Assembly (NCBI GenBank): GCA_964550895.1
Contig: CAZKAP010000003.1
Span: 49,082 to 113,081 of the forward strand
Reading direction: 5' to 3'
DNA: 64,000 nt
Source of the DNA: an uncultured Flavobacteriaceae bacterium
GTDB lineage: Bacteria; Bacteroidota; Bacteroidia; Flavobacteriales; Flavobacteriaceae
In this document: piece after piece, positions 5,046 through 22,181 of the stretch
Layout: every line of letters starts with the position of its first letter
How positions within the stretch are numbered: position 1 is the stretch's first letter
Notes under the pieces: model-generated
What the model saw: only the letters and a program-made list of their open reading frames with translations
The model's database searches: none
Told to the model about the DNA's origin: nothing
Translations under genes and position numbers: made by a program

Positions 5046-5063
5046 GAGGGCACAAAAAAGGTG

Positions 5064-5732: not shown

Positions 5733-5757
5733 AGGCTGTCGCTTAGCTGCCGCAAAT

Positions 5758-7155
5758 TTAATCCAGTACTATGGGAAGTCCGAAATAGAATTCGAGGATT
5801 TTAAGGCGGAAAATATAATCGTATTTGGTGCGAATGGCCGTGGCTTCCGCATTGTCGAGCCGTGCCTGGGCCTGGCCGTAATCGAAGGCATTCAGCAATC
5901 CATTTTCGTAGCGCTGGCGGGCATATTCCAAAGCCACGCGTCGGGCCTCTACAGTCTTCAACGCCGCATCGTACGCCAGGTAGAAGGTTTCCACATCCAC
6001 ATAGGCCTGATTGATGGCATTCTCCAGATCGAGTTTGGTTTGTTCGAGTTGCAATTTGCTCTGCAGCACGCCAAGCTTGGCCCGCTTTACATTATTCCGG
6101 GCCGAATTTCCATTGAACAGGGGAATATTCATTTGAAACCCATAGGATATCCCATCGTTGTTCTCCAACTGCGCAACAAAATCCGGTCGAAACACCACGA
6201 AATCGTCTGCCGGATTATTGGGATCCTGATCCGGGTTGGGTGCGATCTGAAAGGCATCGGTCGCAAAGGTATTGTAATTGAAAAAGGCACTCAGTGTGGG
6301 ATAGTAGGAACCCCGGGCTATCGCCAAATCCTTCTCGGCCACTTCTACGTTGGTCTCGGCGAACTTGATATCGTTCCGAAACGACAGGGCCTTCTCGAAG
6401 ATCACCTTGGGGGTATTCTTCAGGATTTCGGAAGCTGGAACGTTGTAGGTATCTTCCGCCAACTGGAAGTTTTCGTAATCCGTAATCTGCAGGAGCTGGG
6501 CGAGGTTAATCCGGGATATAATCACCAGACTCTCCGTATTGGTAATCTGCTGCAACTGAGTGGCGGCAGTGGCCTGCACCTCAAGCAAGTCGCCCTCAGG
6601 GGCGGCTCCTTCGGCTACCAGGTTCCTTACCCGTTCCAGGTCGTTCTTGGTAACCTCGTACTGCGCCCGGGCCACGTTAAGAGCCTCCTTGTTAGAGATG
6701 ACCTGCAGATACGCATTGGCCACATTCAGTCGGATATCGTCCTTCAGGTCTTCCAACCGGTAGCGGCTCGCAATCGTATTGAGCTTGGCGCGCGAGGCCC
6801 TGTTGAAGTTACGGAGTCCGTCGAATAGGGTATATCCGACATTCAGGTTGGCCGAACCGGATAGAATCTCACCCACGGTATTGGTCTGGGTCTGCGGATC
6901 CAGGATCAGACCCCGGCTTTCCCGAGCCGAAATGGAACCGTTCAGGTTGGGCAAGAAGTTACCCAGGGCGTCGGACTTGGCGATGGCCGCATTCTCCAGG
7001 TCGAGTTCGAACTGCTCCACAGTCAGGTTATTATCGATAGCGTACATCACGCACTCCTCCAGGGTCCATTTCTTCTGGGCATGCAAACCGGATCCCAGGA
7101 GAACCGCAAGCAAAAGGGTAAAGGCGTATTTATGGTATGATTTTATTATGATCAT
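5758..7155 (-). CDS. TolC family outer membrane efflux protein
   Basis: 465 aa. Signal peptide and two-repeat helical TolC-like sequence. It is the last gene of the ABC/adaptor operon. Confidence 0.85.
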   Translation of the reverse strand: MIIIKSYHKYAFTLLLAVLLGSGLHAQKKWTLEECVMYAIDNNLTVEQFELDLENAAIAKSDALGNFLPNLNGSISARESRGLILDPQTQTNTVGEILSGSANLNVGYTLFDGLRNFNRASRAKLNTIASRYRLEDLKDDIRLNVANAYLQVISNKEALNVARAQYEVTKNDLERVRNLVAEGAAPEGDLLEVQATAATQLQQITNTESLVIISRINLAQLLQITDYENFQLAEDTYNVPASEILKNTPKVIFEKALSFRNDIKFAETNVEVAEKDLAIARGSYYPTLSAFFNYNTFATDAFQIAPNPDQDPNNPADDFVVFRPDFVAQLENNDGISYGFQMNIPLFNGNSARNNVKRAKLGVLQSKLQLEQTKLDLENAINQAYVDVETFYLAYDAALKTVEARRVALEYARQRYENGLLNAFDYGQAQARLDNAEATAIRTKYDYIFRLKILEFYFGLPIVLD

Positions 7156-7167
7156 CAGTTGTGGTCT

Positions 7168-8307
7168 TTATTCGTTGTTTTCCGCATCTTCCTCTTCCTC
7201 ATCGCCCTTCTTGATAGGTTGGGTCTTGTTCCATTCCTTGACCTTGTCTTCCTCGGTCAGGCCCGAAATGATCTCTACATTAATGCCATCGGACAGCCCA
7301 ATTTCAATATCGCGACGTTCGAATTTCCCCTCTTCGTTAAGGACTTCGACATAGGGCTCATTCGTGGATCGATCGAACTGTAGCAGGGCCTCCTGTATCA
7401 CCAGGACGCTGTCTCTGCTTTCCAACACGAAGGAGGCATTGGCACTGTAGCCGGCACGAATCTGGAATTCCTCATCCAGAGACACTTCGCCTTCGATCTT
7501 AAACTGAACGGCCCCCCCTTCATCCGTACCCTTGGGAGCAACGAATCGAAGAGTGGCCTCGTACTCCTTATCTTCAATGGCCCCCATGGTAATAGTCAGG
7601 GGCATACCGACCTTAAGCTTGCCCACCTCGCCCTCGTCTACCTGGCCTTCAAATATCATTTTACTCAGGTCGGCCAATATGGCCACGGTGGTACCGGCGT
7701 TGAAGTTATTACTCTGTATCACCTGATCCCCTATTTTCACCGGAATCTCGAGTATGGTTCCCGACACCAGGGCACGAATATTGGTATTGGCCTCGGTGAT
7801 TCCGCCGGCAGTTCCCCTGCGGATGATCTGGTAATCGGCCTTGGCATTCTTGAGCTCCTGCTCCGCACGATCATAAGTCAGCTGCAGGTTCAGGTAGTCC
7901 TGGCTCGAGATCACGCCTTTATCGTAAAGCGCCTTGCTGCGATCGTACTCGATCTTGGCATTGTTCCGGGCGAGTTCAGCGTTCCGCACCCTGCCCTGGG
8001 CCTGATTCAGAGCCTGCTCGTTAGGTACCACCTTGATAATGGCGATCAGGTCTCCACTCTTGACTTTGTCCCCCTCTTTCTTGAGGATTTTATCGACGAT
8101 ACCGGTGATCTGGGGTTTGATCTCCACCTCGTCTTCGGGTACTACACTGCCGGTAGCGACCGTTTTCTTCTCTATACTGGAGATAAATGGGGAGTAGGTC
8201 TCGTATTGAACGGACCCTTTGCTGTTTGAACTGATAAAGAACGAAGCAGCGGCAAGACCTCCTACCACCAGGACGACTATCGCGAATATTATCAGAAACT
8301 TCTTCAT
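7168..8307 (-). CDS. efflux transporter periplasmic adaptor subunit (HlyD/MacA-like)
   Basis: 379 aa. N-terminal TM anchor, lipoyl-like segment (VKSGDLIAIIKV) and a coiled-coil hairpin. Paralog of 18086-19177. Confidence 0.85.
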   Translation of the reverse strand: MKKFLIIFAIVVLVVGGLAAASFFISSNSKGSVQYETYSPFISSIEKKTVATGSVVPEDEVEIKPQITGIVDKILKKEGDKVKSGDLIAIIKVVPNEQALNQAQGRVRNAELARNNAKIEYDRSKALYDKGVISSQDYLNLQLTYDRAEQELKNAKADYQIIRRGTAGGITEANTNIRALVSGTILEIPVKIGDQVIQSNNFNAGTTVAILADLSKMIFEGQVDEGEVGKLKVGMPLTITMGAIEDKEYEATLRFVAPKGTDEGGAVQFKIEGEVSLDEEFQIRAGYSANASFVLESRDSVLVIQEALLQFDRSTNEPYVEVLNEEGKFERRDIEIGLSDGINVEIISGLTEEDKVKEWNKTQPIKKGDEEEEDAENNE

Positions 8308-8343
8308 TAGACTGGGTATTTGTTGTTGTTATGCAATCTGTTT

Positions 8344-9609
8344 TTATTCTTCTCGTAATGCCTCTATAGGCCGGATTCTCAGTGCCCTCTGCGCAGGTAT
8401 TAGTCCGATAAGGGTACTGAATACGACCATGATCACCAGGGCCACTATCACAAAGGGAATAGGAACCGTCGGATTTGTATAGGGGAAATCCGTCAGGTCC
8501 TTTGTGGCCCTATCGACCAGCCAAAGCACCAGCGCCCCAAACGAAATGCCGTATATACCCGAAATCAGGGTCAGCACCGTACTCTCGAGTATGATCAGTG
8601 TTCGAACCTCGACGGGTTTGGCCCCCAGGGCCCGTCGCACACCGAGTTCCTTGGTACGCTCCCGGACGGAAATCAGCAGTATGTTCCCGATGGAGATCAC
8701 TCCGGCCAATATGGTGGCAACCCCAATGATCAGGGAGAGCAGCGTCATGCCCGAGGAAAAATTCTTGATGTTGTTAAATATCGCGCCCAGGTTTACGGAG
8801 GAAATCGCCACCTCGTCCGTCGGATCGATGTCCTTCTCGAATTTCAGGACCGCCTTGATGTCTTTCTCGACCTGGACCACGTCCGAGCTGTCGTAAGCCG
8901 CAATCAGCATCCAGTTTACCCGATCCCCGGTATTGTATAACTTCCGGTACGTATTGAACGGGATGTAGATGTCCGTATCGGCGGAAAACGGACTGGATTG
9001 AATAAATTTCTGGACACCGATCACCTGGAAACTCACCCCGTCGATCTCGATAAATTCGCCCACGGCCTTCTCCCCTTTTTCGAAGAGCTCGGCCTTGGCG
9101 CGTTCGCCAATCACACAGACCTTACGCTCGTACTTCATGTCATCGTCATTGATGTAGCGACCGCCCTCATAAATGTCGCGGGTGGCGATTTTCAGAGACA
9201 CAGGGGATTCCCCGTAAACGGCATAGCTTCCCTGTTGCAAGCCGCGCTTGATCACACCACCGGGGCTTCCGAATATCCCTTTGGCATTGGATGGGGCAAT
9301 GAATTCGATATCCGGCACCCGCTTTTTGAGCAGGCTCAGGTCCTCGATCCGGATGGGAACAAAGCGGCCCTTCTTAAAACCCGCGTAGGGTTTGCTGGTG
9401 CGCTGTGCCCAGACGAACATCGTATTGATCGCCGTGCGTTCAAATGCCCGGTCGAATCCATTGTCCAGACCCTTGGCTGCACCGGACATGGTGATGTACA
9501 CAAAGATTCCCCAGAAAACACCGAACATCGTCAACAGGGTGCGCACCCAGTTGCTTCCGATGGAATTGAAGATTTCCTGCCAGGTATTTAAGCTAAAGAG
9601 TAGTTTCAT
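8344..9609 (-). CDS. ABC transporter permease (MacB/FtsX-type)
   Basis: 421 aa. N-terminal TM, large periplasmic domain and C-terminal FtsX bundle (RERTKELGVRRALGA). Paralog of 19198-20451. Confidence 0.85.
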   Translation of the reverse strand: MKLLFSLNTWQEIFNSIGSNWVRTLLTMFGVFWGIFVYITMSGAAKGLDNGFDRAFERTAINTMFVWAQRTSKPYAGFKKGRFVPIRIEDLSLLKKRVPDIEFIAPSNAKGIFGSPGGVIKRGLQQGSYAVYGESPVSLKIATRDIYEGGRYINDDDMKYERKVCVIGERAKAELFEKGEKAVGEFIEIDGVSFQVIGVQKFIQSSPFSADTDIYIPFNTYRKLYNTGDRVNWMLIAAYDSSDVVQVEKDIKAVLKFEKDIDPTDEVAISSVNLGAIFNNIKNFSSGMTLLSLIIGVATILAGVISIGNILLISVRERTKELGVRRALGAKPVEVRTLIILESTVLTLISGIYGISFGALVLWLVDRATKDLTDFPYTNPTVPIPFVIVALVIMVVFSTLIGLIPAQRALRIRPIEALREE

Positions 9610-10839
9610 TTATTCGCTTCTCATGGCCTCAACGGGCTGGATTCGGGCTGCCCTGCGAGCGGGGATCATCCCCGCCAGGATTCCGCAGACGATTAACAAT
9701 ACCGTGGCCGATATGGCAAACCGCCCACTCACGTAAGGATCTTCGATGAAGTAGTCACTCAGTACATCCCCCATATTCTCCAGGATAAGTACGCCTATAC
9801 CCATGCCTATAAAACCGAAGATGATGGTAATTACCGAGGCCTCCAGTAGGATGATTCCAATGATGTCCCTGGGACGGGCCCCTACCGCCTTGCGGATACC
9901 GATCTCACGGGTACGCTCCTTGACCACGAACACCATGATGTTTCCGATAGCCACAATTCCGGCGATGATCGTTCCTATAGCGAAGGAGAGTGCGATCATC
10001 CCCAGGGCCCCTGCAAACTGCTGATTGCGCTCATAGTCACTGGCGATATTGCGTACGAAAATGGCCCGTGTATCGTCGGGGTTTATAAACTTCTTGTCCC
10101 TCAGGAAATTCAGGACATTATTCTGGAAAGCGGTGGCTATCTGAGCGCTGATGCCGGGCTTGAACAAGATGATCAGGAAATCGACTTTATCGGTACTCTT
10201 CTCGATTCGCTGGACTGTCTTGTACGGTACGTAAATGATGCGTTCGGCATTATCCCCGTCGTCGTCCTGAAAGACCCCAACCACCTGAAAAGCGATTCCG
10301 CCTATATCCAGGTAGGTCCCGATAGGGTCCTCATCCCCGTACAGGTCCTTGACCACCATACGCCCGATCACGCATACCTTAGTCCGGTCCTTAAGATCCT
10401 TGTCGTTGATGAAGCGCCCCTTCATCATTATGGTCTGTTCTACTATGCGGTGGGAAGGAGCTACGCCCTGGGTGGTATAGTTGTTGGATTCCTGCTTGTA
10501 GCGCACCAAATTCCCCCGTGAAATCCTGGGGGAAACGGCCGAAAGGAAATTGGCGAAGTTCTCCTGTATATCGGCTATATCGGAATTCTCGAACTCGATA
10601 CGCCGATTGGATTCGTATCCCTTGAACGGTATGGAAGTACGTCCGGGAAAGAAGTAGATTACGTTGGTGGGGTTATTTCCGAAGAACTTGTCGAAGGTAT
10701 TCTTCAGGCCGTTGGTCAGGCCGACCAGGATAACGACGATAAAAATACCCAGGGCCATGGTAAAGCCCGTGAGGAACGTCCGGAGCTTGTTCTTCCGGAG
10801 CGTAGAGTAGATTTCTTTCCAGGCCTCCAGACTAAACAT
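9610..10839 (-). CDS. ABC transporter permease (MacB/FtsX-type)
   Basis: 409 aa. Same architecture (KERTREIGIRKAVGA) and abuts the next permease with no gap. Paralog of 20460-21704. Confidence 0.85.
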   Translation of the reverse strand: MFSLEAWKEIYSTLRKNKLRTFLTGFTMALGIFIVVILVGLTNGLKNTFDKFFGNNPTNVIYFFPGRTSIPFKGYESNRRIEFENSDIADIQENFANFLSAVSPRISRGNLVRYKQESNNYTTQGVAPSHRIVEQTIMMKGRFINDKDLKDRTKVCVIGRMVVKDLYGDEDPIGTYLDIGGIAFQVVGVFQDDDGDNAERIIYVPYKTVQRIEKSTDKVDFLIILFKPGISAQIATAFQNNVLNFLRDKKFINPDDTRAIFVRNIASDYERNQQFAGALGMIALSFAIGTIIAGIVAIGNIMVFVVKERTREIGIRKAVGARPRDIIGIILLEASVITIIFGFIGMGIGVLILENMGDVLSDYFIEDPYVSGRFAISATVLLIVCGILAGMIPARRAARIQPVEAMRSE

Positions 10840-11533
10840 GCGGTGTAACTCTTACCTGTTCGACCTTCTCGTCCTTTACAATCACCCCATCTTTGAGGTA
10901 AACGATTCGCTTACACATGTGGGCGATATCGTCCTCATGTGTGACGACCAGTATGGTGTTTCCCTCATCGTTGATCTTCTGGATCAGGGCCATAACCTCA
11001 TGGGATGTAGTGCTGTCCAGGGCCCCTGTGGGCTCATCGGCCAGTAGTACCTTAGGCTCAGATGCCATGGCACGGGCGATGGCCACGCGCTGCTTCTGTC
11101 CACCGGAAAGCTCGCCGGGAAGGTGCTTGGCCCATTCCCTAAGGCCCACCCTTTCCAGGTATCCCATCGCCTTGCGGTTGCGCTCCTTACGCGCCATCCC
11201 CTGATAATAGAGGGGCAATGCCACGTTCTCCAGCGCAGATTTATAATTGATCAGATTAAACGACTGGAAAACGAAGCCCAGAAACTTGTTGCGATACTCC
11301 GCCGCTTTGGTCTCGTCCAGATTTTTGATGGGAACTCCATCCAACTCGTAGATCCCGGAATCGGCGCTATCCAGTATGCCGATGATGTTTAACAGGGTCG
11401 ACTTTCCCGATCCGGAGGATCCCATAATGGCCACAAGTTCGCCCGATTCCACCGTAAAGTCGATACCCTTGAGAACATGCAGGGAATTCGAGCCCATTTG
11501 GTAGGATTTGTGCAGGTCTTTGATTGTAATCAT
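10832..11533 (-). CDS. ABC transporter ATP-binding protein (MacB/LolD-type)
   Basis: 233 aa. Walker A GSSGSGKST, signature LSGGQKQR, Walker B LLADEPTGALD. Overlaps the downstream permease by 8 nt. Confidence 0.9.
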   Translation of the reverse strand: MITIKDLHKSYQMGSNSLHVLKGIDFTVESGELVAIMGSSGSGKSTLLNIIGILDSADSGIYELDGVPIKNLDETKAAEYRNKFLGFVFQSFNLINYKSALENVALPLYYQGMARKERNRKAMGYLERVGLREWAKHLPGELSGGQKQRVAIARAMASEPKVLLADEPTGALDSTTSHEVMALIQKINDEGNTILVVTHEDDIAHMCKRIVYLKDGVIVKDEKVEQVRVTPHV

Positions 11534-11709: not shown

Positions 11710-12186
11710 TTAACGGTTCTCGAGCGTACAGAGTACAAAGTTACCCGTCCATCTTCGAATACGTGTGTAATTTGAGTTAAATCGAAGTCGGCCTACTGCA
11801 GGATCCATAAGCCAACATCCGTTCCTTTCCGCTTCGTACCGGACCGCATAGTGTAGCGAATTCGATGGTCCGCCCAGGATCAGGATAACGGGCATAGTTA
11901 GACAAAGTCCCTCTAGTCCAGCTTGGACCGCCCGGGGGTCAACCCACATACTCCGGGTCTGCACGCCCCATTTCTCCAAAGCAGCTTCCAAATCGATGAG
12001 ACGGGTTCCCCCGGCTCCTGTACGGCAGGAGTTATACACCTCATCGTAGCCCACCTGTATACCGAAAAACCTGAAAACCGAAACCGCACAGGCGGGTCCG
12101 CAATCGGCGCGGGCCCTTTGTCGGACTTCCACGCCGAGACGGCGAAGATCATGAGGCCTTTGGAAATTGCCACCCCATCGAAACAA
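11710..12186 (-). CDS. stand-alone peptidase C39-like (double-glycine leader / bacteriocin-processing) cysteine protease domain
   Basis: 158 aa with a TTG start; there is no in-frame ATG before residue 80. C39 signature Q23-x5-C29 (VRQRARADCGPACAVSV), H112 (SLHYAVRY) and D128-P (LMDPAVG). No ABC transporter part is attached. Confidence 0.7.
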   Translation of the reverse strand: MFRWGGNFQRPHDLRRLGVEVRQRARADCGPACAVSVFRFFGIQVGYDEVYNSCRTGAGGTRLIDLEAALEKWGVQTRSMWVDPRAVQAGLEGLCLTMPVILILGGPSNSLHYAVRYEAERNGCWLMDPAVGRLRFNSNYTRIRRWTGNFVLCTLENR

Positions 12187-12200
12187 TTGAAACCTGTTTT

Positions 12201-12428
12201 CTATTTACCGTATAAAACGAAAAAGGAAGAAACCCTGCGGTAGAACATGTATTCGAGTACCCAGCGATAAAAGGGACGGGCTATGCGGTATCGGACGGTA
12301 TTGGAATCGATCAATCGGAAGAGATAAACGCTGACATAGCGATCCCTGAGCATTTTTCGGATTGAACGGTCCTGATACGCGGGAAGATAGGACTGTTCGA
12401 AGTCATAAAAAACTGAACCTAAACGCAT
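12201..12428 (-). CDS. hypothetical protein (possible gene remnant)
   Basis: 75 aa with an ATG start. Tyr/Arg/Phe-rich with no recognisable domain. Ends 15 nt upstream of the C39 gene. Confidence 0.25.
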   Translation of the reverse strand: MRLGSVFYDFEQSYLPAYQDRSIRKMLRDRYVSVYLFRLIDSNTVRYRIARPFYRWVLEYMFYRRVSSFFVLYGK

Positions 12429-12953
12429 TAATCGTAATTCTGCTTCATCCGCAACAGATCAAAGATATAACTCTTTAAACAAAACAAGTCTGAATACTCG
12501 ACGGGAGGCTAAGAAGTTATCCACCAAAGGAACCCATCTCCGGTGTATGCTTTTGTCTCGGTTCCGAGGGCAGCGGGTTAAGCAAAAGATTGGCCAGCAT
12601 AGCGCCGGCCAATCCCCATCAGTCATGATCACAGTCTATATGATAGAGCTTCCTGCCGTAATTGAAGCTCTTCACATACAGTTCAAGTATGGCTACGGTC
12701 CAGTTCGGACGGATAAATCCAGCGCGGATATCCATCCTTTCTTCCATGGAAAGCACTCGCATATGAACCCGGCTAGTGGTCACTTACTGATGATTCATAA
12801 ATGAACCCGGTCATGGTCCCTATAAGCACGGCATCTATGGCCAGCATGACCACCAATGGAATAACCGGCAATGGTCTCAGTTCGGATTGGGCAGTTGATA
12901 CAATCAATAGTCTACGGATTTATTCTTTTCCTACTCTTTTCAGGATTTTCGGC

Positions 12954-14192
12954 TTACTCCTTGGTCGAAGCGCTTCGGGATCCCGGGAAGCCAACGACTC
13001 TTCTAAAGTAATGTCCCGGACTGTAGATTTCATTCGCCCGCATCAGATACCTAATCAGGACGATGGACAAAAGGGCGAACGGGTACAGTCGGGGTAAAAG
13101 CGAAGCGATCGTATTCTCTGTATCGCCCGGATGAATCGCTGCCTGCAGCAGTAGAGTCATCACGCCGGAGTCATAACTTTGATATACAGCGTATAACAAT
13201 CCAACAAGAAATAATGAAACCGCCAGGTAATGCAGTAAACCGAGTAGCGCAAGTAGCCGTGAATTCCCTGGATGCAGCCATATACGAGGGTTTTTAAGCC
13301 TCCTCGCCAATTCGACCCTCGCCCGTTCATTCAGCCGGTCTACTCCGGTCAGATCCGTGAGTACCCAATAGCCATCTCCCCTGACTAATGGGTTCAGGTT
13401 CCAGAGCGACCGGAGCAGGATAAGGACCGCCGCCAATTTCCCGGAACCGAAGCCCCATAACTCCGAGGCTGTAAGGAGTGCCGCGCAAAAGGCCCATTCG
13501 AAATAAATCCCCGCCAGGTTAACGTGTACCCTCTTCCGCGGACTCAAACGCCAGGCATCCGTCACATCGGAAAACATCACCGGGAACACCAGATACAACC
13601 CGCCGCCTATAATACCGGGACGCCCACCGTAGTACAGGAGGGCCGAGGCATGTCCGAATTCGTGCAACAATACCGAGCAGGCCGTGATAAGGAGTTCTGC
13701 CGGCCAATTGAGTTCTTCCGGGTCGAGCTGAACCGGATGGGACATCCAAAGACTGACAGTCAGCCATAGCACGACCATCAGCACTGCCGGCCATGCATGC
13801 AGGAAGCTGAACAGCCGGCTCGCAGCCGCCACCCGCTGCCTATCCAGAAGGGTAAACCCCCAAAGGAGATAAGGTGGAATAGTCCCCTCGGGAGCCGGAG
13901 GCGGTTCGTCTAAGAAGAGCCCCTTGTTTCGGAAGCGGGAATCGTAAATACGAAGGACATCTTCCTCTTCAAGACGAGTGCCCAGCTCGGCATTCAGCGC
14001 CGGAGCGACCTGGTGAAGGGACCTGTTCGACCGGAGGAGTCTCAGGAAAAGATAGCCTGACAGGTTCGTTTTCAAATATGTGGATGCTCCTTCTTTCCAG
14101 ACCAGCCACTTTCCCGGTCCCACGGGCTTGAACCGTACGGCAGGGTCGAGCTGTAGCTTCGGTACCGATGCCTGTTTATCCGTATAAGGCAT
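12954..14192 (-). CDS. PqqD/RRE-like domain fused to M50 (site-2-protease-like) membrane zinc metalloprotease
   Basis: 412 aa. Residues ~11-96 follow the PqqD/RRE pattern (PKLQLDPAVRFKPV..KWLVWKEGASTYLKTNLSGYLFLRLL..RSLHQVAPALNAELG..EEDVLRIYDSRFRNKGLF). The multi-TM body carries HEFGH (13650-13664) and NLNPLVRGDG (13371-13400), i.e. HExxH plus NxxPxxxxDG. The ATG overlaps the upstream gene by 17 nt. Confidence 0.7.
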   Translation of the reverse strand: MPYTDKQASVPKLQLDPAVRFKPVGPGKWLVWKEGASTYLKTNLSGYLFLRLLRSNRSLHQVAPALNAELGTRLEEEDVLRIYDSRFRNKGLFLDEPPPAPEGTIPPYLLWGFTLLDRQRVAAASRLFSFLHAWPAVLMVVLWLTVSLWMSHPVQLDPEELNWPAELLITACSVLLHEFGHASALLYYGGRPGIIGGGLYLVFPVMFSDVTDAWRLSPRKRVHVNLAGIYFEWAFCAALLTASELWGFGSGKLAAVLILLRSLWNLNPLVRGDGYWVLTDLTGVDRLNERARVELARRLKNPRIWLHPGNSRLLALLGLLHYLAVSLFLVGLLYAVYQSYDSGVMTLLLQAAIHPGDTENTIASLLPRLYPFALLSIVLIRYLMRANEIYSPGHYFRRVVGFPGSRSASTKE

Positions 14193-16050
14193 CCAGCGCG
14201 TAAATCGTTGAAACGGCTCGGCTCCGAAAGGCCTGTCCGGGCCTGGGGGTTACAAATGGGACGGATTCCCAGGAACCATCCTCGCTTTGAGTTCGAAGCA
14301 GGAAATCCCTGGCATCCCGATAAAACGGATGATGCCCATAGCCAATATCCCGCATACAAAGGGACACAAGAGCCGTTGAGAGCGGGTCAGATTCGGCCCC
14401 GGGCTGCAATCCGAAGCCTCCATCCGGATTCCGGCCTTGGTTCAGGAATTCATCCCATCGCTGTAGGCAATCTCCTTTGAATTCCCCGAGTCTGTAGAGG
14501 TACCGGCCTACCTTGTAGGTTCCGTAGGGCCAGCCCACGTACCACCGGCTGGCCCAGGCCCCCGAGGGCAGTTGTGCATTCTTCAGATAGGCCAAGGATG
14601 CAGACCGGAGGGGCTCCAGCAATAGCGGGCGGTAATCCAGCAGGACATCGTACATATTGGCCACTACCTCGGGGTCCGGACCCATACCCCAGAGGCGGCT
14701 GTTCAATTCCCGCTGCCACTGGGAATTCCTTTGATCAGCACCACCCGTGATCCAGGTCAACATTACCCCTTTACTGTCCAGACCGCAGGATGCATGACGG
14801 CTCAATATTTCGTAGCAGTACCGGTCGATCAGATCGCGCCGGCCCATTCGAAGAAAAAAACGAATGACCTGCGACAAGTCGTCTATATCCGCTGAGAGGT
14901 TAGGCAGACTGGGAAAGTAGGACCACAGGCCGACGGCATGGTCTCGCCGCTGTCTCAGGTAATAGTCCACTTCCCGTTCCAGGTAGTTTCGCATATCGGC
15001 GGATGGGTTTTCCTGTCGGGCCAGGAAATCATCGGCCAGCAAGCGGTAAAAGAGGTCTGAACTATGTATACCCGAAACCCCCCGAAATCCTTCTCCTTCG
15101 GATACGTACATAAAGTGCCTGAGACCCGGCCAATTCCTCTTGCGCTCCTCGTTCAGGAATCCAAGGCCCCGCTGCCTGTGCAGGTCATGGTCAGGACTAA
15201 GTCGACCCGGTTTATCTGCCCCATCGGAAAGGGATACCCTCAATCGGCTGTGGGCCATTTGGACATATCCCAGGGCCTGCTTGTCGTAAAAACGCAATTC
15301 CCTAAGTACCTGTGCAACTGCCCCGCGCCACTGGCCATCACCTGGAATCAGTTGCAGTGCCTGTTCAAGTTGCCCGAACGCCCGCTCGAAAATCCAATGG
15401 GCGTGCCCCTTCAAATACATCGATTTCCTCGCAGCCTCCATCTCCTTTCGGGTCTCGGGCCAGCCGTGTTTGAGCGACCAGGTATACCATACCCAGTTGA
15501 ACCGTCTGGCCGTGAAATCCTCTTCGACATCGACCAGGTCGTCATAGAGCTGCAGGGCCACGGAGAAGCTGGAATGCGATTTCAGTAAGCTCAGGTATAT
15601 CGGCCTCACCGTCTCCCGGTCCTCTGTAAGCAGGAAGAGTCCGTCCAGGGCCAGTTTAGCCAACGCTGATTTGGCCTCGGCCAGTTTGCTGAAATCGTCG
15701 AATCCCAGTTGTTTACCCCCGGCAAATGACCTTTCCGTCCTGACGGCCCATGCCATTTCGGCCTCCCTGGAGGACCACTTTGCCCAGAAGGGGCTTTCCG
15801 GGCTGAAGAGGCCATTCAGTATCGACACGGACTGACGATATGCCCCTAGCAAGGGCAGTAGGGCATCCGGATCAGCCTCATCGACCAGCCGGTCCCATTG
15901 AAGTGCAGCCTGAAAGCACTCCCTGCCGGACGCATCGAGCCGGTTTACTAACGGTCTTTCCACCTGGGGAAAAAAGTCCCTGAACAGGCTCGCGTAGTTT
16001 TGGTAATACGCGTATAATCTATTCCTCAATGGATCTGCCGGATGTGCCAT
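14176..16050 (-). CDS. terpene-synthase-like fusion protein: class I isoprenoid-synthase-like N-domain + class II cyclase / prenyltransferase-repeat C-domain
   Basis: 624 aa. The N-terminal part has DRLVDEAD (15871-15894) and ALQLYDDLVDVEED (DDLVDVEED = 15517-15543), about 117 aa apart. The C-terminal part has SADIDDLSQV (DIDD = 14878-14889) and QW-type repeats AYLKNAQLPSGAW (14554-14592), NQGRNPDGGFG and RDFLLRTQSEDGSW (14269-14310). Confidence 0.65.
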   Translation of the reverse strand: MAHPADPLRNRLYAYYQNYASLFRDFFPQVERPLVNRLDASGRECFQAALQWDRLVDEADPDALLPLLGAYRQSVSILNGLFSPESPFWAKWSSREAEMAWAVRTERSFAGGKQLGFDDFSKLAEAKSALAKLALDGLFLLTEDRETVRPIYLSLLKSHSSFSVALQLYDDLVDVEEDFTARRFNWVWYTWSLKHGWPETRKEMEAARKSMYLKGHAHWIFERAFGQLEQALQLIPGDGQWRGAVAQVLRELRFYDKQALGYVQMAHSRLRVSLSDGADKPGRLSPDHDLHRQRGLGFLNEERKRNWPGLRHFMYVSEGEGFRGVSGIHSSDLFYRLLADDFLARQENPSADMRNYLEREVDYYLRQRRDHAVGLWSYFPSLPNLSADIDDLSQVIRFFLRMGRRDLIDRYCYEILSRHASCGLDSKGVMLTWITGGADQRNSQWQRELNSRLWGMGPDPEVVANMYDVLLDYRPLLLEPLRSASLAYLKNAQLPSGAWASRWYVGWPYGTYKVGRYLYRLGEFKGDCLQRWDEFLNQGRNPDGGFGLQPGAESDPLSTALVSLCMRDIGYGHHPFYRDARDFLLRTQSEDGSWESVPFVTPRPGQAFRSRAVSTIYALDALYG

Positions 16051-17152
16051 ATATGCCTGGTTTTGGATGATCCCCTATAAGAGCCCGACCCGGATTTTCC
16101 TTTCCCAGTTGGCGATGCCAGGGCACATTGGGGTCGAGTCCCGATTTCGAATACGACAGCCCGGTGTCGTTCCCGTGATTAAACAATTCAATCTCCATCC
16201 TGTACTTAAGGAAAGAACCGGAATCGTACACCTCGCCTTCCTCAATAAATCTTACCCGTCTCAGGCTGAACCATGGATCCTTGTAGTCGATCCAGAGCTC
16301 GGTGCACTGTCGACGGAGCCTTCGGCCATGTTGTCCTCCTCCCTTTTCGATATGGGATTCGGGCAGGTACTCATAGAATATGCGGTATGCTCCATCATTT
16401 TCCTCGGGATAGAGTAGTGATCCCGATATATACGAACGCTTGCTGTCCTCGTGGCGCACGCGGAATTCGCAGGTACGATGGCTTCCCGGGCCGGACCGCT
16501 CATGCCAGGACCAAATCCAGCCCGGCCGGAACAGGAAGCCCACGGTGGTATTCAGATAAAACAGTCTGGCAATGTCCCGGTTCGGAACGAACCCCCTGTC
16601 CCAGGGACTCGTCTGAGGCGAGTATTTCAGATAGTCCAGATTGTATCCGTAGATGCTGAATTGCCTGTGCCATTTTCGCCCAGGAGCAAACCGGGTTCGC
16701 AGTCGGCTCACGGCGAACTGGGCCTGAAGCTGACGTTTAGGCATTCCATCGACCCGGAATGCTTCCCGGTAGGTCAGTAGCTGTGGTCGGGATACCCGTT
16801 TGGCACGAATCAGCCGCTGGTAAATGCTTCTGGGATGGGTGGCCACCAGGTTGACTTCGTTCAATTCCAATCGCTTGGGCCACAGATAGACCGTATCCGT
16901 CTGATTGCGCTTCATGCGGTATGCGTCTATGGATTCGAAGCCGATATGGGAAATACGGAGCCGGGGATTAGGATCGGGTATCCGGCATTGGCCCTCCTTA
17001 TCTGAAAATCGTATCCTGCCGGTTTCCCTCTCGGTGATTGCCACATTCTCCAAAGGCCGCATGCGTTCTGCATCCATGACGATCAGGCCGTATCCCTGGG
17101 TCCAAGCCGTCGAAGGCAGCAAGACCATAAGCAAAACTCGTATCCATTTCAT
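16019..17152 (-). CDS. secreted carboxypeptidase-regulatory-like (CarboxypepD_reg) domain protein, function unknown
   Basis: Start moved to ATG 17152 (MKWIRVLLMVLLPSTAWTQ signal peptide). A CarboxypepD_reg-like segment follows (GLIVMDAERMRPLENVAI...DKEGQCRI...LRISHIGFES); the rest is unassigned. Overlaps the downstream gene by 32 nt. Confidence 0.55.
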   Translation of the reverse strand: MKWIRVLLMVLLPSTAWTQGYGLIVMDAERMRPLENVAITERETGRIRFSDKEGQCRIPDPNPRLRISHIGFESIDAYRMKRNQTDTVYLWPKRLELNEVNLVATHPRSIYQRLIRAKRVSRPQLLTYREAFRVDGMPKRQLQAQFAVSRLRTRFAPGRKWHRQFSIYGYNLDYLKYSPQTSPWDRGFVPNRDIARLFYLNTTVGFLFRPGWIWSWHERSGPGSHRTCEFRVRHEDSKRSYISGSLLYPEENDGAYRIFYEYLPESHIEKGGGQHGRRLRRQCTELWIDYKDPWFSLRRVRFIEEGEVYDSGSFLKYRMEIELFNHGNDTGLSYSKSGLDPNVPWHRQLGKENPGRALIGDHPKPGIYGTSGRSIEE

Positions 17153-17186
17153 AGAAAAAGAGTGGCCCGTTCCGGGCCACCCGCAA

Positions 17187-17336
17187 TTAAAATCGAACTT
17201 TGGCGGTGAGTTCGAGGTCACCGTTAGACGGTTCGTACTGAACACCTACGTCTCCGCCGCGGATCCAGCCCATCTCGAATCGCTGTTCGAGTTCCACCAC
17301 ATCAAAGAGGTCCATCAATTCATCGGATTCATGCAT
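17187..17336 (-). CDS. candidate precursor peptide with double-glycine (GG) leader, 49 aa
   Basis: Not in the ORF track because it is under 60 aa. Runs from ATG 17336 to TAA 17187-17189: MHESDELMDLFDVVELEQRFEMGWIRGG|DVGVQYEPSNGDLELTAKVRF. The leader end EMxxIRGG matches the double-glycine consensus at positions -1, -2, -4, -7, -8 and -15. It lies 34 nt upstream of the next gene on the same strand. Confidence 0.5.
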   Translation of the reverse strand: MHESDELMDLFDVVELEQRFEMGWIRGGDVGVQYEPSNGDLELTAKVRF

Positions 17337-17353
17337 CTGCTTACGTTTTTAGG

Positions 17354-17461
17354 TTAATTAGGAATTTTGGGTAGGATGGGAATGGACGGTATGCATCCCT
17401 GCCATTCGACTTCCTGAGGCTCTGTATCCCAGGGCCAGAGCTTTCTGATTTGCTTGAACAT
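17354..17461 (-). CDS. possible 35-aa Trp/Pro-rich small ORF (very uncertain)
   Basis: Runs from ATG 17461 to TAA 17354-17356: MFKQIRKLWPWDTEPQEVEWQGCIPSIPILPKIPN. Starts about 20 nt downstream of a TAGATTTG box and stops 17 nt before the GG-peptide ATG. There is no homology evidence. Confidence 0.15.
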   Translation of the reverse strand: MFKQIRKLWPWDTEPQEVEWQGCIPSIPILPKIPN

Positions 17462-17480
17462 AATAAGGCTTTGTTTTGGG

Positions 17481-17488
17481 CAAATCTA
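17481..17488 (-). promoter_or_regulatory. candidate Bacteroidetes sigma-A -7 promoter element (TAnnTTTG)
   Basis: The minus strand reads TAGATTTG, an exact match to TAnnTTTG, within the 175-nt gap between the wHTH gene and the peptide ORFs. I found no clear -33 TTG. Confidence 0.3.
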
Positions 17489-17511
17489 TCTGGAGCCGGT
17501 GCAGTTTCCTT

Positions 17512-17784
17512 TCATCCGCCATAGAGCTCCGTCGTCTCGTCTTCATTGACGATCATCACACTGATCCGCACCTTCAGGTTGAAGTATTCCTTGTAGAAGT
17601 AGGTCTTACGGGATCGGTCGTATCCGATTCGCGCCTTGAAATCCTTCAACTGTTCGATCAGGTGGTACACCAGCCGTTCACTGATGCGCAGCCTCCCTGC
17701 GAGCTCTGTGGGACTGCCTGTACTTTCGGTTTCGATGGCCTTGTGAATAAACTGAAGCCGTTCGAGATTCCTGATGTTATTCAT
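17512..17784 (-). CDS. small winged-helix-turn-helix protein (putative transcriptional regulator)
   Basis: 90 aa. HTH pattern STGSPTELAGRLRISERLVYHLIEQLKD followed by a wing-like IGYDRSRKTYFY, resembling DeoR/HTH_11 N-terminal domains. Confidence 0.6.
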   Translation of the reverse strand: MNNIRNLERLQFIHKAIETESTGSPTELAGRLRISERLVYHLIEQLKDFKARIGYDRSRKTYFYKEYFNLKVRISVMIVNEDETTELYGG

Positions 17785-18085
17785 ATGCTGTATTTATGGT
17801 TAGCACACCCCGGGGGAAATGGGTGTGGTGGACAACCTAAAACTATACAGCTATACAGGCCATTTGAAAATCAAATACCCGGTCATTTATAAATCCTGAG
17901 ATTCGATGCTTAAAGAAGCGCGGACCAAAATATGACGTATATGAAAGGTTCATGTGCCCAACCCAACCACAGCTTGCATTCGGCGGGTCTCGTCCCAAAA
18001 AGCACTCCAGTAGAAGCCGGCTGCTCCCTTCATCGGCGAGTTCGGGTATTTTATAATTCGTCGGTCGCGTCCGGTGGGATGTTCC

Positions 18086-19177
18086 CTATTTTACATTCCA
18101 GACCTTAATGCGGTCGGATTCACTCAGTCCATCCCGGATTTCGACATAGAGTCCGTCACTGACACCCAGGACCACATCACGGCGCTCGAAGTTCTTTTCG
18201 CCCGTTGCCACCTCCACGAAAGGACGATTGGTCTCCTTGTCGAATTGCAGCAGCCCTTCCTTGATGGCCAGGACACTATCGGCCTGCTCGAGTATAATGG
18301 AGGCATTCGCACTGAGTCCTGCCCGAATAAATACGGAATCCGCCTTCCTGAGCGTGCCCTTGATCTCGAACTGAATGGCCCCGTTCTCCTCGACTCCCTT
18401 GGGCGCAATATAGTCCAGTACGGCATCGAAAACCTGGTTTTTGAGGGCACCAACTGTAATTTCCAATGGCAGATTCTCGGTAACATTCCCTACTTCGGCC
18501 TCGTCGATCTTGCCTTCGAATATCATGCGGTTGATGTCCGCTATAGCCGCGATCGTAGTGCCTTCGTTGAAGTTGTTGGCCTCGATCACCTGGTTCCCCA
18601 CTTCCACGGGTACATCCAGAACCATGCCGCTTACGGTAGCCGTGATCCGTGTATTTGCCGCCTTACCCAACTCCCTGGTGGAACCCGTCCGGACGATGTC
18701 GTATCGCTTACTGGCGGCACTAAACGCCAGGTTGGCCTGATCGTAATTCACCTGGGCCACATCCATATCGGCCTGCGAGATCACCCCCCGTTCGAACAGG
18801 GACTTCTGGCGGTCGTAGTTGCGCTTCTGGTCTGCCCTTCGAATTCGAGCCTCTTCCACCGCATTCCTCGCATCATTGAGTTGCTGCAAATTGGGCACGA
18901 CTTTGATGCGCGCGATGAGGTCTCCCGACTTGACGTAATCGCCACCTTCGACAAATACGGCTTGAATAACGCCGGATATATTGGGCTTGATCAGCACCTC
19001 CTCCTTGGGTATGATCTTGCCTGTGGCTACGGTCTTTCGCACGATGTCACGGCGCTCAGGAGATTCGGTAGTGTAGCTGACGGGATCCTCCTGATTCTTA
19101 GTGTACAGGTAGTACATGGATGCGCCGAATCCGATGACGATCAGGCTGAGAACTGCAATGGTGATCCATTTTTTCAT
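18086..19177 (-). CDS. efflux transporter periplasmic adaptor subunit (HlyD/MacA-like), paralog
   Basis: 363 aa. Aligns along its full length with 7168-8307 (for example SGDLIARIKVVPN... versus SGDLIAIIKVVPN...). Confidence 0.85.
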   Translation of the reverse strand: MKKWITIAVLSLIVIGFGASMYYLYTKNQEDPVSYTTESPERRDIVRKTVATGKIIPKEEVLIKPNISGVIQAVFVEGGDYVKSGDLIARIKVVPNLQQLNDARNAVEEARIRRADQKRNYDRQKSLFERGVISQADMDVAQVNYDQANLAFSAASKRYDIVRTGSTRELGKAANTRITATVSGMVLDVPVEVGNQVIEANNFNEGTTIAAIADINRMIFEGKIDEAEVGNVTENLPLEITVGALKNQVFDAVLDYIAPKGVEENGAIQFEIKGTLRKADSVFIRAGLSANASIILEQADSVLAIKEGLLQFDKETNRPFVEVATGEKNFERRDVVLGVSDGLYVEIRDGLSESDRIKVWNVK

Positions 19178-19197
19178 GACGGTGTTTTAATCAACTG

Positions 19198-20451
19198 CTA
19201 TTCGGTTCGTATGGCTTCTATTGGGCGTACCCGCAGGGCACTCCGGGCGGGAATAAATCCGGCGAGCAGACCGGAGCCCACCAGGAAAAACAGGGCAAGG
19301 GCCACATAGCCGATCTGGACGCTCGGATTGAAAAACATATCGACGGGGCCGACCTGTTCCAGGGCGTAATTGATTCCGTAAATGGTCAGGGCGCCGAAGC
19401 CCACCCCCATCATCCCGCTCAGTACGGTAATCACGGCGGACTCCGCCAGAATCTGATACCGAATCGAGGAGGCCTTCTCCCCTAGGGCCCTTCGAATTCC
19501 GATCTCCCGTGTGCGTTCCTTCACGATGATGAGCATGATGTTGCTTACCCCGATTATACCGGAGAGCAAGACCATGAGGCCAACGACTATGGCGACCAGG
19601 TCCAGCACATCGAAAAGGGACTGCACCTTACCGAATTCCTCGAATATATCGTTGTTGCCAATCGCCCGGTTATCGGTGGGGCTTACCCGGTGATTCCGCT
19701 TCAGCACATCTATGATCTGACCCTTCAGGGCGGTGATGGGAAACTCGTCTTCCGCCGTGATCGCCATCCATCCGACCCGGTCTCCCTGATTAAAGACCTG
19801 GTTGAATGAGGTGAACGGCACATATATGGACTTCTGGTCTTCGGTATCGTCGGCACTCTCGTTCGCCTTCTTGTAGGTTCCGACTACCTGGAAGTTCACG
19901 CCCTGTATCTTGATGTAGGTGCCCAGTACCTCTTCGTCCGATTTATAGAGTTCACGGACTACACCCGGACCGATCACGGCAATCTTACGCCGTTTTTCTA
20001 TGTCCCATGCGTTGATAAACCGACCCAGAGTGATGTCCATGGGTTCCTGGTTCATGATATCCGGAAAATCGGCGAAGATCACATAACTCCCACTCTCCAC
20101 GCCGCGAATAACATTAGGTTCACTGCTGCGCTGTTGGTTGCGGCCGGAAATATACTTCAGGTGAGGGACCTGATCCCGTATGGCCTCCAGGTCACCAACC
20201 CGGTAGCGGATCGGCCGGCCTTTGGGCAATCCATCATAGGCCTCGGTAGTGCTCCGTCCCCAAATGAATACCGTATTGGTGGCTATGTTCCCGAAGTCGA
20301 GGCGAACGCCTTTCTCCAGGCCGTCGTTTACCGCCAGCAGGAGGATGAAGATGTAGATCCCCCAGCCGACGCCGAAGGCCGTCAGTAGCGTCCGGCTCGG
20401 CTTGGCGGCGAGCACCTCCAGTATTTCCCTCCATCGGTCAGCTGAAAACAT
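19198..20451 (-). CDS. ABC transporter permease (MacB/FtsX-type), paralog
   Basis: 417 aa. FtsX C-terminal bundle (KERTREIGIRRALGE). Paralog of 8344-9609. Confidence 0.85.
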   Translation of the reverse strand: MFSADRWREILEVLAAKPSRTLLTAFGVGWGIYIFILLLAVNDGLEKGVRLDFGNIATNTVFIWGRSTTEAYDGLPKGRPIRYRVGDLEAIRDQVPHLKYISGRNQQRSSEPNVIRGVESGSYVIFADFPDIMNQEPMDITLGRFINAWDIEKRRKIAVIGPGVVRELYKSDEEVLGTYIKIQGVNFQVVGTYKKANESADDTEDQKSIYVPFTSFNQVFNQGDRVGWMAITAEDEFPITALKGQIIDVLKRNHRVSPTDNRAIGNNDIFEEFGKVQSLFDVLDLVAIVVGLMVLLSGIIGVSNIMLIIVKERTREIGIRRALGEKASSIRYQILAESAVITVLSGMMGVGFGALTIYGINYALEQVGPVDMFFNPSVQIGYVALALFFLVGSGLLAGFIPARSALRVRPIEAIRTE

Positions 20452-20459
20452 CGTCCTTG

Positions 20460-21704
20460 TTATTCTTCCTTAAGTGCTACTACCACCCGGGTACGGGCGG
20501 CCTTCATGGCCGGAACCAGTCCGGCTATGGTGCCGGCAACTACCAGCACCAGGACCATGGCCGTGGCAATCTTAAAATCTACTGCCGGATACCTGAGGTA
20601 ATCGATAGCCAGATCGGCCCCAAATATCTCCAGCAGCCCCATACTGGCAATGAACCCCATACTGCCGGAAACTACCGTAATAAAAAGGGCCTCGTGCAGA
20701 ATGAGACAGATAAGGCTGGACGGAGTGGCCCCCAGTGCCTTGCGTATGCCGAGCTCACGGGTTCGTTCTTTCACCACGATAAGCATGATGTTGCCCACTC
20801 CGACGATACCCGCAATCAGCGTGCAGATTCCCACAAACCAATTGAATATCGAAATATTGTTGATCAGGTTGTAGTACCGTTCGGTCTCCTCGGCCATACT
20901 CCAGATGAAAATGGCCCGTTCGTCTTCCGGCGCTACCCGATGCTTTCTCTTCAGGTAATCGAAAAACAATGCCTTGACGTGGGCCGTATGAGCCAGGGTT
21001 TCGTCCAGGGTCTCCTTTTCGTATAGGCTGAATGCGTAGTTGCCGACGCGGTTGAATTCGGCAAAGACCACCTCGGCCGTGGTAATAGGAACGTACATGC
21101 GCTGTTCCTCACTTTCATTCATTTCCTCGTAGACTCCGACCACCTTGAAGGGGATGCCTGAGAGTTCGATAAATTCCCCCAGGGGTGAGGAATCTTCCTC
21201 GAAGACTTCGTCCCTGAGCTTCTTTCCGATTACGATCACCTTACTGAGGTTCTCCAAATCCAGCGGATTCAGGAAACGGCCCTCGGCTATGGCCGCATTC
21301 TCGATAAACTGAAACTGGTCGTTTACGGCCTGAATCGAATACGGAAGTGCTTCGTCACCGTAAACGGCCGACACCCCACCGACAAACATGCGGGGAGAAC
21401 CGTATTCGTATTCGGAACCAAAGGCGTCGCTCAAATCATGAAATTCCTCCATGGAGAATCGAATCCTGCGTCCCGGATTCAGGCCGTCGTAGGCCATGGA
21501 AGTCGTTTCGGGCCAGACCCAGAGCGAGGTAGTGGAATCCTGTTCAAACTCGAACTCTATGCCGTTCTCCAGCCCTTTTCCAAAACCCAGAAGTATAACC
21601 AGTATAAAGATTCCCGAACTCACGGCCAGTCCGGTAAGGAAGGTCCTGAGCCTGTTTTTCCAGAGGGTCTCGAGTAACTCCTGCCATCGTTCGAGGTCAA
21701 ACAT
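20460..21704 (-). CDS. ABC transporter permease (MacB/FtsX-type), paralog
   Basis: 414 aa. Its start MFDLERWQELLETLWKNRLRTFLTG compares with MFSLEAWKEIYSTLRKNKLRTFLTG of 9610-10839. Confidence 0.85.
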   Translation of the reverse strand: MFDLERWQELLETLWKNRLRTFLTGLAVSSGIFILVILLGFGKGLENGIEFEFEQDSTTSLWVWPETTSMAYDGLNPGRRIRFSMEEFHDLSDAFGSEYEYGSPRMFVGGVSAVYGDEALPYSIQAVNDQFQFIENAAIAEGRFLNPLDLENLSKVIVIGKKLRDEVFEEDSSPLGEFIELSGIPFKVVGVYEEMNESEEQRMYVPITTAEVVFAEFNRVGNYAFSLYEKETLDETLAHTAHVKALFFDYLKRKHRVAPEDERAIFIWSMAEETERYYNLINNISIFNWFVGICTLIAGIVGVGNIMLIVVKERTRELGIRKALGATPSSLICLILHEALFITVVSGSMGFIASMGLLEIFGADLAIDYLRYPAVDFKIATAMVLVLVVAGTIAGLVPAMKAARTRVVVALKEE

Positions 21705-21914
21705 TTCCGTATATCTTATCGCCCCCTTGCCTCTGTGGGCGACTTCTTTTCAACGCGGAATATCGCCAAATAGTGGGTTGAGGGGTGTTAGTATATTGCT
21801 AAAAAGTGTGTTGCGCATTAACCCGAGAGCATAAACCGATTAAGGCCACACCAGAAAGACTCCCTGCCGGGAATAATGTTACAGAAATTCAGCAGTAAAC
21901 CGCATGCGGGAAGA

Positions 21915-22181
21915 TCAGCCCGCCTGGCCCGTACGGGCCTTTTTATTGCGAAAGCGGGTATACACCAGGAAAATGGCCAGTCCGACCAGGATGTACGGAA
22001 TCACCATCAGGTAGACGATGCCGTCGTTAAGGCCCTGGGCCGCTTCTCCACTGGCTTCGGTTTCCAGCACGGCGCGGCACATAGAGCACTGGGCATGCAG
22101 TGGGATTGACGGAAGCAAAACCGCTATCAGCAAGGCCATCGGCCACAGTACCTCCTGAAACCTCCACACGCCACTAGCCAT
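21915..22181 (-). CDS. small membrane protein associated with cytochrome oxidase cluster (hypothetical)
   Basis: 88 aa. Signal/TM segment, CSMC motif and a C-terminal TM helix. Overlaps the DUF420 gene end by 8 nt. Confidence 0.5.
   Translation of the reverse strand: MASGVWRFQEVLWPMALLIAVLLPSIPLHAQCSMCRAVLETEASGEAAQGLNDGIVYLMVIPYILVGLAIFLVYTRFRNKKARTGQAG

Follow-up and report, generated by a model that had tools for sequence, protein, structure and literature searches.

A conserved 49-residue peptide encoded beside a prenyltransferase-cyclase fusion in an uncultured Flavobacteriaceae bacterium: probable precursor of a tryptophan-prenylated, terpene-cyclised peptide

Reports of peptides carrying a cyclised terpene date back no further than 2024, and characterised examples are very few. 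In ChrPC, a P domain resembling trans-isoprenyl diphosphate synthases (hereafter trans-IDS) prenylates an internal tryptophan with C10-C20 donors and is fused to a C domain, which cyclises the prenyl group (PMC13290415, a 2026 review citing Hubrich et al., Chem 10:3224, 2024). Tryptophan prenyltransferases of this trans-IDS-like kind share a glutamine just upstream of the second motif rich in aspartate (SARM), which recognises the indole (PMC13290415). In the NctPC 'steromaze' proteusin system of Nostoc, tryptophan is geranylgeranylated and a fused cyclase domain then carries out the cyclisation (PMC13290415; PMC13647313), and in the ComX/ComQ system of Bacillus a trans-IDS-like enzyme prenylates a tryptophan in a short ribosomal peptide, after which proteolysis releases the peptide (PMC13290415; PMC10853753). 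Here, a 49-codon gene and the enzyme genes downstream of it are described from a 64 000 nucleotide stretch of DNA (the window) from an uncultured marine Flavobacteriaceae bacterium (assembly GCA_964550895.1, contig CAZKAP010000003.1, positions 49 082 to 113 081). The locus is a compact and testable example, and probably an uncharacterised addition to the kind of system described in 2024. The 49-residue peptide is probably the precursor (A-peptide) of a ribosomally made peptide with post-translational modifications (RiPP) of the ChrPC type; this judgement applies to the tryptophan prenylation model as a whole, and its boundary and export steps are held with less confidence.

Like ChrPC, the locus combines a fused trans-IDS-like prenyltransferase and class II cyclase, here of 624 residues, with an adjacent small precursor containing an internal tryptophan. 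As in ChrPC-type enzymes, there are aspartate motifs resembling the first aspartate-rich motif and the SARM, with a conserved glutamine (Q167) before the latter, and homologues of the 624-residue enzyme occur in Chryseobacterium (∼30% identity) and its relatives. Compared with ChrPC as summarised in PMC13290415, the subclade of marine Flavobacteriaceae to which the window belongs adds a stand-alone C39 peptidase, a double glycine (GG) after the tryptophan, a 75-residue open reading frame (ORF), a small helix-turn-helix (HTH) protein and flanking MacB-type pumps. NctPC differs in having an ABBA-fold prenyltransferase and a proteusin (NHLP) precursor, whereas the P domain here is trans-IDS-like and the leader is short and acidic with a helix motif. 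The 624-residue enzyme also differs from ComQ in its additional cyclase domain, and the leader motif is unrelated to that of ComX; ComQ has been reported to be without a SARM (PMC10853753), whereas the 624-residue family retains DDxxD. No kinase corresponding to the ComP-type kinase/ComA regulator pair was found among the ORFs of positions 5000-22000 or in the syntenic loci L001 and L005.

The features of the peptide gene, in window coordinates, are as follows.

17187..17336, minus strand: putative precursor peptide gene, 49 residues plus stop (ATG at 17336, TAA at 17189-17187)
17336..17271, minus strand: proposed leader, residues 1-22, ending in the family motif LFDVVELEQRFEM
17270..17190, minus strand: proposed core, residues 23-49, beginning where conservation stops
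17265..17267, minus strand: codon 24 (TGG), the sole tryptophan and predicted prenyl acceptor, invariant in alignment A3 (below)
17253..17258, minus strand: codons 27-28 (GG), earlier proposed as a C39 cleavage site, unconserved in sister peptides

Translation of 17336..17187 on the minus strand yields MHESDELMDLFDVVELEQRFEMGWIRGGDVGVQYEPSNGDLELTAKVRF, exactly reproducing the ORF proposed in an earlier sequence-only reading of the window, and there is no in-frame start upstream of the ATG at 17336. The two ORFs that were said to mask it were both recovered: one is a GTG-started, 408-residue extension (16019..17245) of the gene that follows, the other a 150-residue antisense ORF (16905..17357, plus strand). 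The plausible start of the next gene, ATG at 17152, lies 34 nt past the peptide stop codon, the spacing originally noted. The description of the gene as unannotated held for the ORF track used in that reading but not for the NCBI and Logan assemblies, in which an identical 49-residue protein is already called, although nameless.

The ORF was compared with its counterpart in L010, a locus from an uncultured Flavobacteriaceae metagenome-assembled genome in which the entire region is ∼80% identical to the window at the nucleotide level. The sequence-only reading had proposed codon-position conservation as a check, and all 13 substitutions in the ORF were at third codon positions and synonymous (dS 0.61, dN 0). 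The peptide is thus 100% identical between the two loci, while the adjacent enzymes are 62-72% identical at the amino acid level; at the divergence of those enzymes, 49 unchanged residues would be expected with P ∼1e-7 or less. Because every substitution is synonymous while the neighbouring enzymes have diverged, the ORF is a real gene under strong purifying selection. Against L005 the peptide gave dN 0.19 and dS 1.6, and in this second orthologue (L004, L005) the peptide is 73% identical and the enzyme 42%. By these alignments nothing else in the cluster is as constrained as the peptide, and its conservation, higher than that of the maturases, suggests that it has a sequence-specific target or receptor. 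A recombination event that had swapped the enzyme cassette between the two lineages was considered, given the 98-100% identity of the peptide, HTH and ABC proteins against 62-72% for the enzymes, and was rejected: the region is uniformly ∼80% identical in nucleotide sequence, and the protein identities reflect different constraint.

Homology searches with the peptide itself were of limited yield. A word-indexed search of the 49-mer returned the identical protein and one 73% relative and nothing else, and an exhaustive phmmer search of 1.84 billion representatives gave just five matches with E-values of 1e-3 or below. Among the precursor models of Pfam and NCBIfam, none matched the peptide or 17 relatives at E up to 1. 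Precursors of the family surfaced only via loci that were fetched with the 624-residue enzyme (one genome per species) and then subjected to a six-frame motif scan of small same-strand ORFs beside the enzyme gene. This identified 72 loci with homologues of the enzyme, spread over Bacteroidota, Chloroflexota, Acidobacteriota, Cyanobacteria and Gemmatimonadota (at least five phyla). Most of these loci have between one and six adjacent small ORFs, often two to six in tandem, giving 108 unique peptides. A small ORF with a common leader motif therefore adjoins the enzyme gene at most loci, the pattern of conservation and synteny for which the sequence-only reading had advised a search, and its proposal of a leader-plus-core precursor tied to the downstream coupled genes is supported.

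The motif common to the 108 peptides is F-x-V-E-E-L-E-x-R-[FYL]-E-[ML], after which the tail is hypervariable. A tryptophan follows the motif in 105 of the 108 peptides and lies one or two residues beyond it in 66; tryptophan makes up 4.0% of tail residues and was found at none of 2957 leader residues. Very short tails after this tryptophan are frequent in the family (e.g. W-DCVQPC and W-VEYNPCECQPK). In alignment A3, which comprises 18 sequences from the window's relatives, F11, E15, L16, E17, R19, E21 and W24 are invariant. At loci with multiple precursors, such as L046, conservation ends exactly at the tryptophan, which places the putative boundary between leader and core at or just before this residue. 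The rule of an acidic leader followed by tryptophan is absent from Pfam and NCBIfam models; with its help, >100 precursor genes that now go unseen, from five phyla or more, could be annotated.

That the ORF is spurious, or is a cis-regulatory upstream ORF (attenuator) for the operon, is scarcely credible. It is short and is directly followed by a terminator-like hairpin, as an attenuator might be, but the codon-position pattern effectively refutes this explanation. The conservation is moreover at the protein level and extends across phyla with an invariant motif and tryptophan, and elsewhere there are tandem paralogues with hypervariable tails, which are typical of precursors and not of attenuators.

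The peptide gene stands at the head of an operon, in which three genes follow on the same strand.

16019..17152, minus strand: 377-residue secreted protein with an N-terminal CarbopepD_reg_2-like domain (domain match below cut-off)
14176..16050, minus strand: 624-residue prenyltransferase-cyclase fusion (Pfam, alignments, models, and fold and profile matches)
12954..14192, minus strand: 412-residue HExxH membrane metalloprotease, candidate leader peptidase (HEFGH at residue 177; hydrophobic segments)

The 624-residue protein has two domains and, on the combined evidence of alignments and structural models, is a prenyltransferase-cyclase fusion. Fourteen homologues were aligned over their full length, invariance being judged across 11-14 homologues and 'nearly invariant' denoting 90% or more. 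The N-terminal domain (∼1-285) is trans-IDS-like and contains a second aspartate-rich motif, Q167-L-Y-D170-D171-x-x-D174-x-x-x-D178, in which Q167, D171 and D178 are invariant; D170, D174 and D57 of the first motif are nearly invariant. Within it, Q167-L-Y-D170-D171 lines up with the SARM in trans-prenyltransferases of known structure (8hdl, 4lob). A model of residues 1-285 (pLDDT 90.4) matched the folds of geranylgeranyl diphosphate synthase (GGPPS, 5jfq), octaprenyl diphosphate synthase (OPPS, 5ze6/3wjo), heptaprenyl diphosphate synthase (HepPPS, 5h9d) and the tryptophan farnesyltransferase Ord1 (9v4g/9v4h), with template modelling (TM) scores of 0.58-0.69.

The C-terminal domain (∼290-624) corresponds to a class II terpene cyclase. 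It matched Pfam SQHop_cyclase_C (PF13243) at 3.5e-10 and a squalene-hopene cyclase (SHC) PDB profile at 4e-30, and in the full-length model (pLDDT 87.9) its fold matched 8paj and 8pak, which are monodomain cyclases of class II (TMt 0.75), as well as MstE, SHC and drimenyl-diphosphate synthase. The DxDD motif is D388-I-D390-D391 (ADIDD), in which D388 and D390 are invariant. The segment W-S-Y-F-P-x(6)-A-D388-I-D390-D aligns where 8paj has GGWGFSLATPADADST (ADADS), and we take it to resemble the GGFAFQ...PDVDDTA acid motif of SHC; ADIDD was assigned as the acid motif because of this similarity of position and context to 8paj and to SHC. The HMMER alignment placed the DxDD region of SHC on GPDPEVVAN instead of ADIDD, a placement worth 1.7 bits that was judged unreliable.

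A homologue of the HExxH protease lies inside the fetched flanks at 69 of 81 fetched loci, a count that includes duplicate and truncated contigs, and precursor, enzyme and protease thus occur together across phyla. The 412-residue protein of the window resembles the proteases of daptide (MpaP) and epipeptide (YydH/LiaK) systems in matching both HExxH models and in its position in a RiPP operon; the NCBIfam matches (daptide_HExxH, 2.6e-35; YydH/LiaK, 1.6e-12) were both below cut-off. A daptide-like system, which the match had led us to suspect, was rejected as the score was 122 bits against an equivalog cut-off of 300 and the daptide enzymes are lacking: Pfam and NCBIfam scans detected neither daptide nor epipeptide maturases in the cluster.

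The 377-residue protein encoded directly upstream of the fusion enzyme begins MKWIRVLL..., which is signal-peptide-like. A CarbopepD_reg_2 match in the protein at this position was obtained at seven of nine related Bacteroidota loci tested, five of them above cut-off, and the secreted protein looks like a fourth conserved component of the system. Secreted CarbopepD_reg_2 proteins of ∼285-410 residues are encoded at L012:3955-5187, L024:6827-7969, L036:6809-7960, L054:6772-7962, L070:5785-6984 and L021:7037-7891.

The favoured model is a tryptophan-prenylated, terpene-cyclised RiPP. Leader residues 1-22 would recruit the 624-residue enzyme, the trans-IDS-like domain of which would place a C10-C20 prenyl group on Trp24, and the C-terminal class II domain, with DxDD as the general acid, would then cyclise the isoprenoid. 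The HExxH protease, acting within the membrane, may cut off the leader at or just before G23-W24. A peptide of ∼27 residues, lipidated near its N-terminus (approximately GWIRGG-DVGVQYEPSNGDLELTAKVRF, W being the modified residue), would then be exported, possibly via the adjacent MacB-type ABC, HlyD and TolC genes. The GG would serve as a linker before the conserved tail, and the stand-alone C39 peptidase may make an additional or alternative cut. The absence of cysteine from the predicted core, which had been remarked upon as unusual, would be explained if the chemistry were prenylation of tryptophan and not thioether formation.

Several points weigh against this model. The acceptor residue, the donor and the cyclisation are proposed by analogy, and membership of the ChrPC type is argued from architecture, motifs and the distant Chryseobacterium homologues, with ChrPC compared by description only. 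The boundary between leader and core is placed solely by where conservation appears to stop in alignments, and three peptides of the family have no tryptophan. Finally, the C39 peptidase looks active and GG lies three residues past W24; both fit cleavage of the double-glycine type, which the model leaves unexplained.

The peptidase in question is as follows.

11710..12186, minus strand: stand-alone 158-residue C39 peptidase (Pfam Peptidase_C39, 1.9e-16)

The ORF is listed from a TTG codon; the true start is probably later, near VEVRQ. Its presence in the same gene string, as claimed in the sequence-only reading, was confirmed, and the columns of the catalytic Gln, Cys, His and Asp are conserved, so that a proteolytic role is likely from alignment of the catalytic positions. 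Leaders of the double-glycine kind have GG (or GA, GS) at -2/-1, hydrophobic residues at -4, -7, -12 and -15, and Glu at -8. The peptide shares with such substrates of C39-ABC transporters (class II bacteriocins, lanthipeptides and GG-type precursors of Bacteroidota) the GG itself, the hydrophobic residues at -4 and -7, the Glu at -8, a C39 domain in the cluster and sister loci with complete transporters. It could be a bacteriocin-like precursor of the double-glycine class, in which C39 cuts after G28, the 21-residue tail DVGVQYEPSNGDLELTAKVRF is exported and residues 1-28, including W24, are discarded. We regard this as unlikely. The elements originally cited for a GG leader are present (GG27-28, I(-4), M(-7), E(-8) and V(-15)), the C39 gene with its intact catalytic residues is in the string, sister loci have full C39-ABC transporters with HlyD, and the 21-residue tail is itself highly conserved: it is 100% identical in L010 and recognisable across the subclade as ...G-x-x-x-x-x-K-V-K-F, with an alternating pattern about an S/P-[ND]-G turn and an end of the form K-V-[KR]-F. 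However, the family-wide leader motif ends in precisely this E(-8) and M(-7), and most of the 108 peptides with this motif come from loci without GG or C39. The residue at -12 is Glu and not hydrophobic, and curated GG-leader and bacteriocin-signal models of Pfam and NCBIfam matched neither the peptide nor its 17 relatives. An unrelated, conserved leader motif can thus mimic the positions of a GG leader convincingly.

Nor are GG and C39 significantly linked. When sister peptides are aligned, the column of the GG holds SG, ST, AA, AE, SI, SA, GA or SV, and this variation extends to loci with full C39-ABC transporters: L011 and L013 encode complete peptide-cleavage/export transporters of this type, and their peptides read WIKSG, WIKSA and WLKSI. 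With a purpose-built hidden Markov model, C39 domains were detected only in the window, L001/L010, L005, L055, L029, L011 and L013, and there was none in the 7 kb of downstream sequence at L023 and L024, although both have GG. The association of GG with C39 within the subclade (5/9 vs 2/7) was not significant (Fisher p = 0.36). The tails contain 12% glycine, and a GG is therefore unremarkable and common by chance. In addition, W24 is N-terminal to GG27-28, and a cut after G28 would therefore strip the predicted modification from the 21-residue core, so that the universally co-occurring prenyltransferase-cyclase would modify a residue destined to be discarded. The putative cleavage after GG sits uneasily with these data.

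Two different proteases are encoded, and a second scheme has both acting on the peptide, HExxH before W24 and C39 after G28, to give a short prenylated and cyclised product of approximately GWIRGG (W being the modified residue), comparable to the pheromone ComX, and a separate 21-residue fragment. The position of GG three residues past the acceptor tryptophan is consistent with this, many tails after the tryptophan in the family are very short, so that small tryptophan-lipidated products are plausible, and some related clusters appear to be on a conjugative element, adjoining a TraB/PrgY-family gene. Dual processing is nevertheless distinctly unlikely, as it meets the same non-conservation of GG and missing linkage to C39, the strongly conserved 21-residue tail would need a separate function, and the cluster has no sensor kinase or obvious receptor. 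An evolutionary form of the same idea is also highly doubtful: the marine subclade would have gained a second, C39-dependent cut, yielding a ComX-like diffusible signal in Bacteroidota and a separately conserved 21-residue beta-hairpin-like peptide, with export by a split C39 and MacB-type tripartite pump and not by a fused C39-ABC transporter. The combination of HExxH protease, C39 and a GG just past the acceptor tryptophan poses a concrete and answerable question about the processing and export of such lipopeptides.

Two putative regulatory signals flank the peptide gene.

17160..17182, minus strand: GC-rich stem-loop followed by a T-run, beginning 5 nt past the peptide stop codon, within the 34-nt gap
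17481..17488, minus strand: TAGATTTG, candidate -7 box by match to the Bacteroidota promoter consensus TAnnTTTG, ∼145 nt before the ATG

A stable stem-loop after the stop codon was present in 17 of 18 folded precursors of related loci (besides the window, L010, L005, L012, L014, L023, L029, L055, L011, L070, L037, L006, L017, L024, L030, L036 and L054), and its position is conserved while the stem sequences differ. In the window it is likely to be a partial terminator or a transcript-stabilising element between precursor and maturase genes, and the conserved position suggests transcript attenuation or stabilisation at this junction in general. At the promoter-box position an alignment of seven loci showed a conserved block, ATAGrTTTG. 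An A-rich block, TTAACCTAAAAA, directly precedes the ATG (17346-17357, minus strand) and is kept in seven related loci. The conservation of the candidate -7 box and A-rich block would imply a dedicated promoter and a 5' untranslated region of ∼135 nt.

The remaining genes of the neighbourhood are as follows.

17512..17784, minus strand: 90-residue HTH-like protein, candidate regulator (weak HTH_11 and HTH_23 matches)
12201..12428, minus strand: basic ORF of 75 residues, rich in aromatic residues, 14 nt ahead of the C39 gene
11533..10832, minus strand: ABC ATPase (ABC_tran; 98% identical in L010)
10839..9610 and 9609..8344, minus strand: two FtsX/MacB-type permeases (MacB_PCD and FtsX on the L001 proteins at these positions)
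8307..7168, minus strand: HlyD-type adaptor (BSH_RND on the L001 protein at this position)
7155..5758, minus strand: TolC-like protein (by inspection only)

The HTH-like protein is 98% identical in L010 and is encoded syntenically upstream of the precursor throughout the subclade. The 75-residue ORF, which has no family match, is 92% identical in L010 and 55% in L005. The interval of ∼525 nt between the protease stop and this ORF (12429-12953) contains no convincing ORF; the L001 gene calls there are of 50 and 88 residues.

The genes at 5758..11533 on the minus strand are a possible export module and may be involved with the peptide. Two MacB-type sets bracket the RiPP cluster, at 18086-21704 and 5758-11533 (minus strand). 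The upstream set lacks an ATPase and has an HlyD-like adaptor with a pair of FtsX permeases; the downstream set comprises, besides its own pair of FtsX permeases and HlyD-like adaptor, an ATPase and a TolC-like gene. L001, L005 and L010 are bracketed in this way too, and L014, L023 and L055 partially so. The RiPP cluster looks to have been inserted into a conserved efflux locus.

Some related clusters contain further genes. Isopentenyl diphosphate isomerase genes lie inside two of them (L011:11129-11587 and L030:1328-1825), and a Ser/Thr-kinase-like gene is located upstream in L030. Long cysteine-rich tails, often ending in tryptophan, follow the same leader motif in L048, L058, L060, L061, L064 and L069 (Chloroflexota and Acidobacteriota). 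A gene of ∼500 codons precedes the precursors in L048, L060 and L064, and the one from L048, the sole one tested, encodes a radical SAM enzyme. These data suggest that the loci with cysteine-rich tails are hybrids of thioether or other radical SAM chemistry with prenylation of tryptophan.

In enterococci, TraB/PrgY proteins have been linked to the control of pheromones. In L006-L009 (e.g. L006:8289-13098) a distant version of the cluster sits among genes of the PRTRC system, for a single-stranded DNA-binding protein (SSB) and, by a faint match, for MobC, which suggests a conjugative element; it encodes a TraB_PrgY_gumN-family protein and a 109-residue secreted protein between precursor and enzyme.

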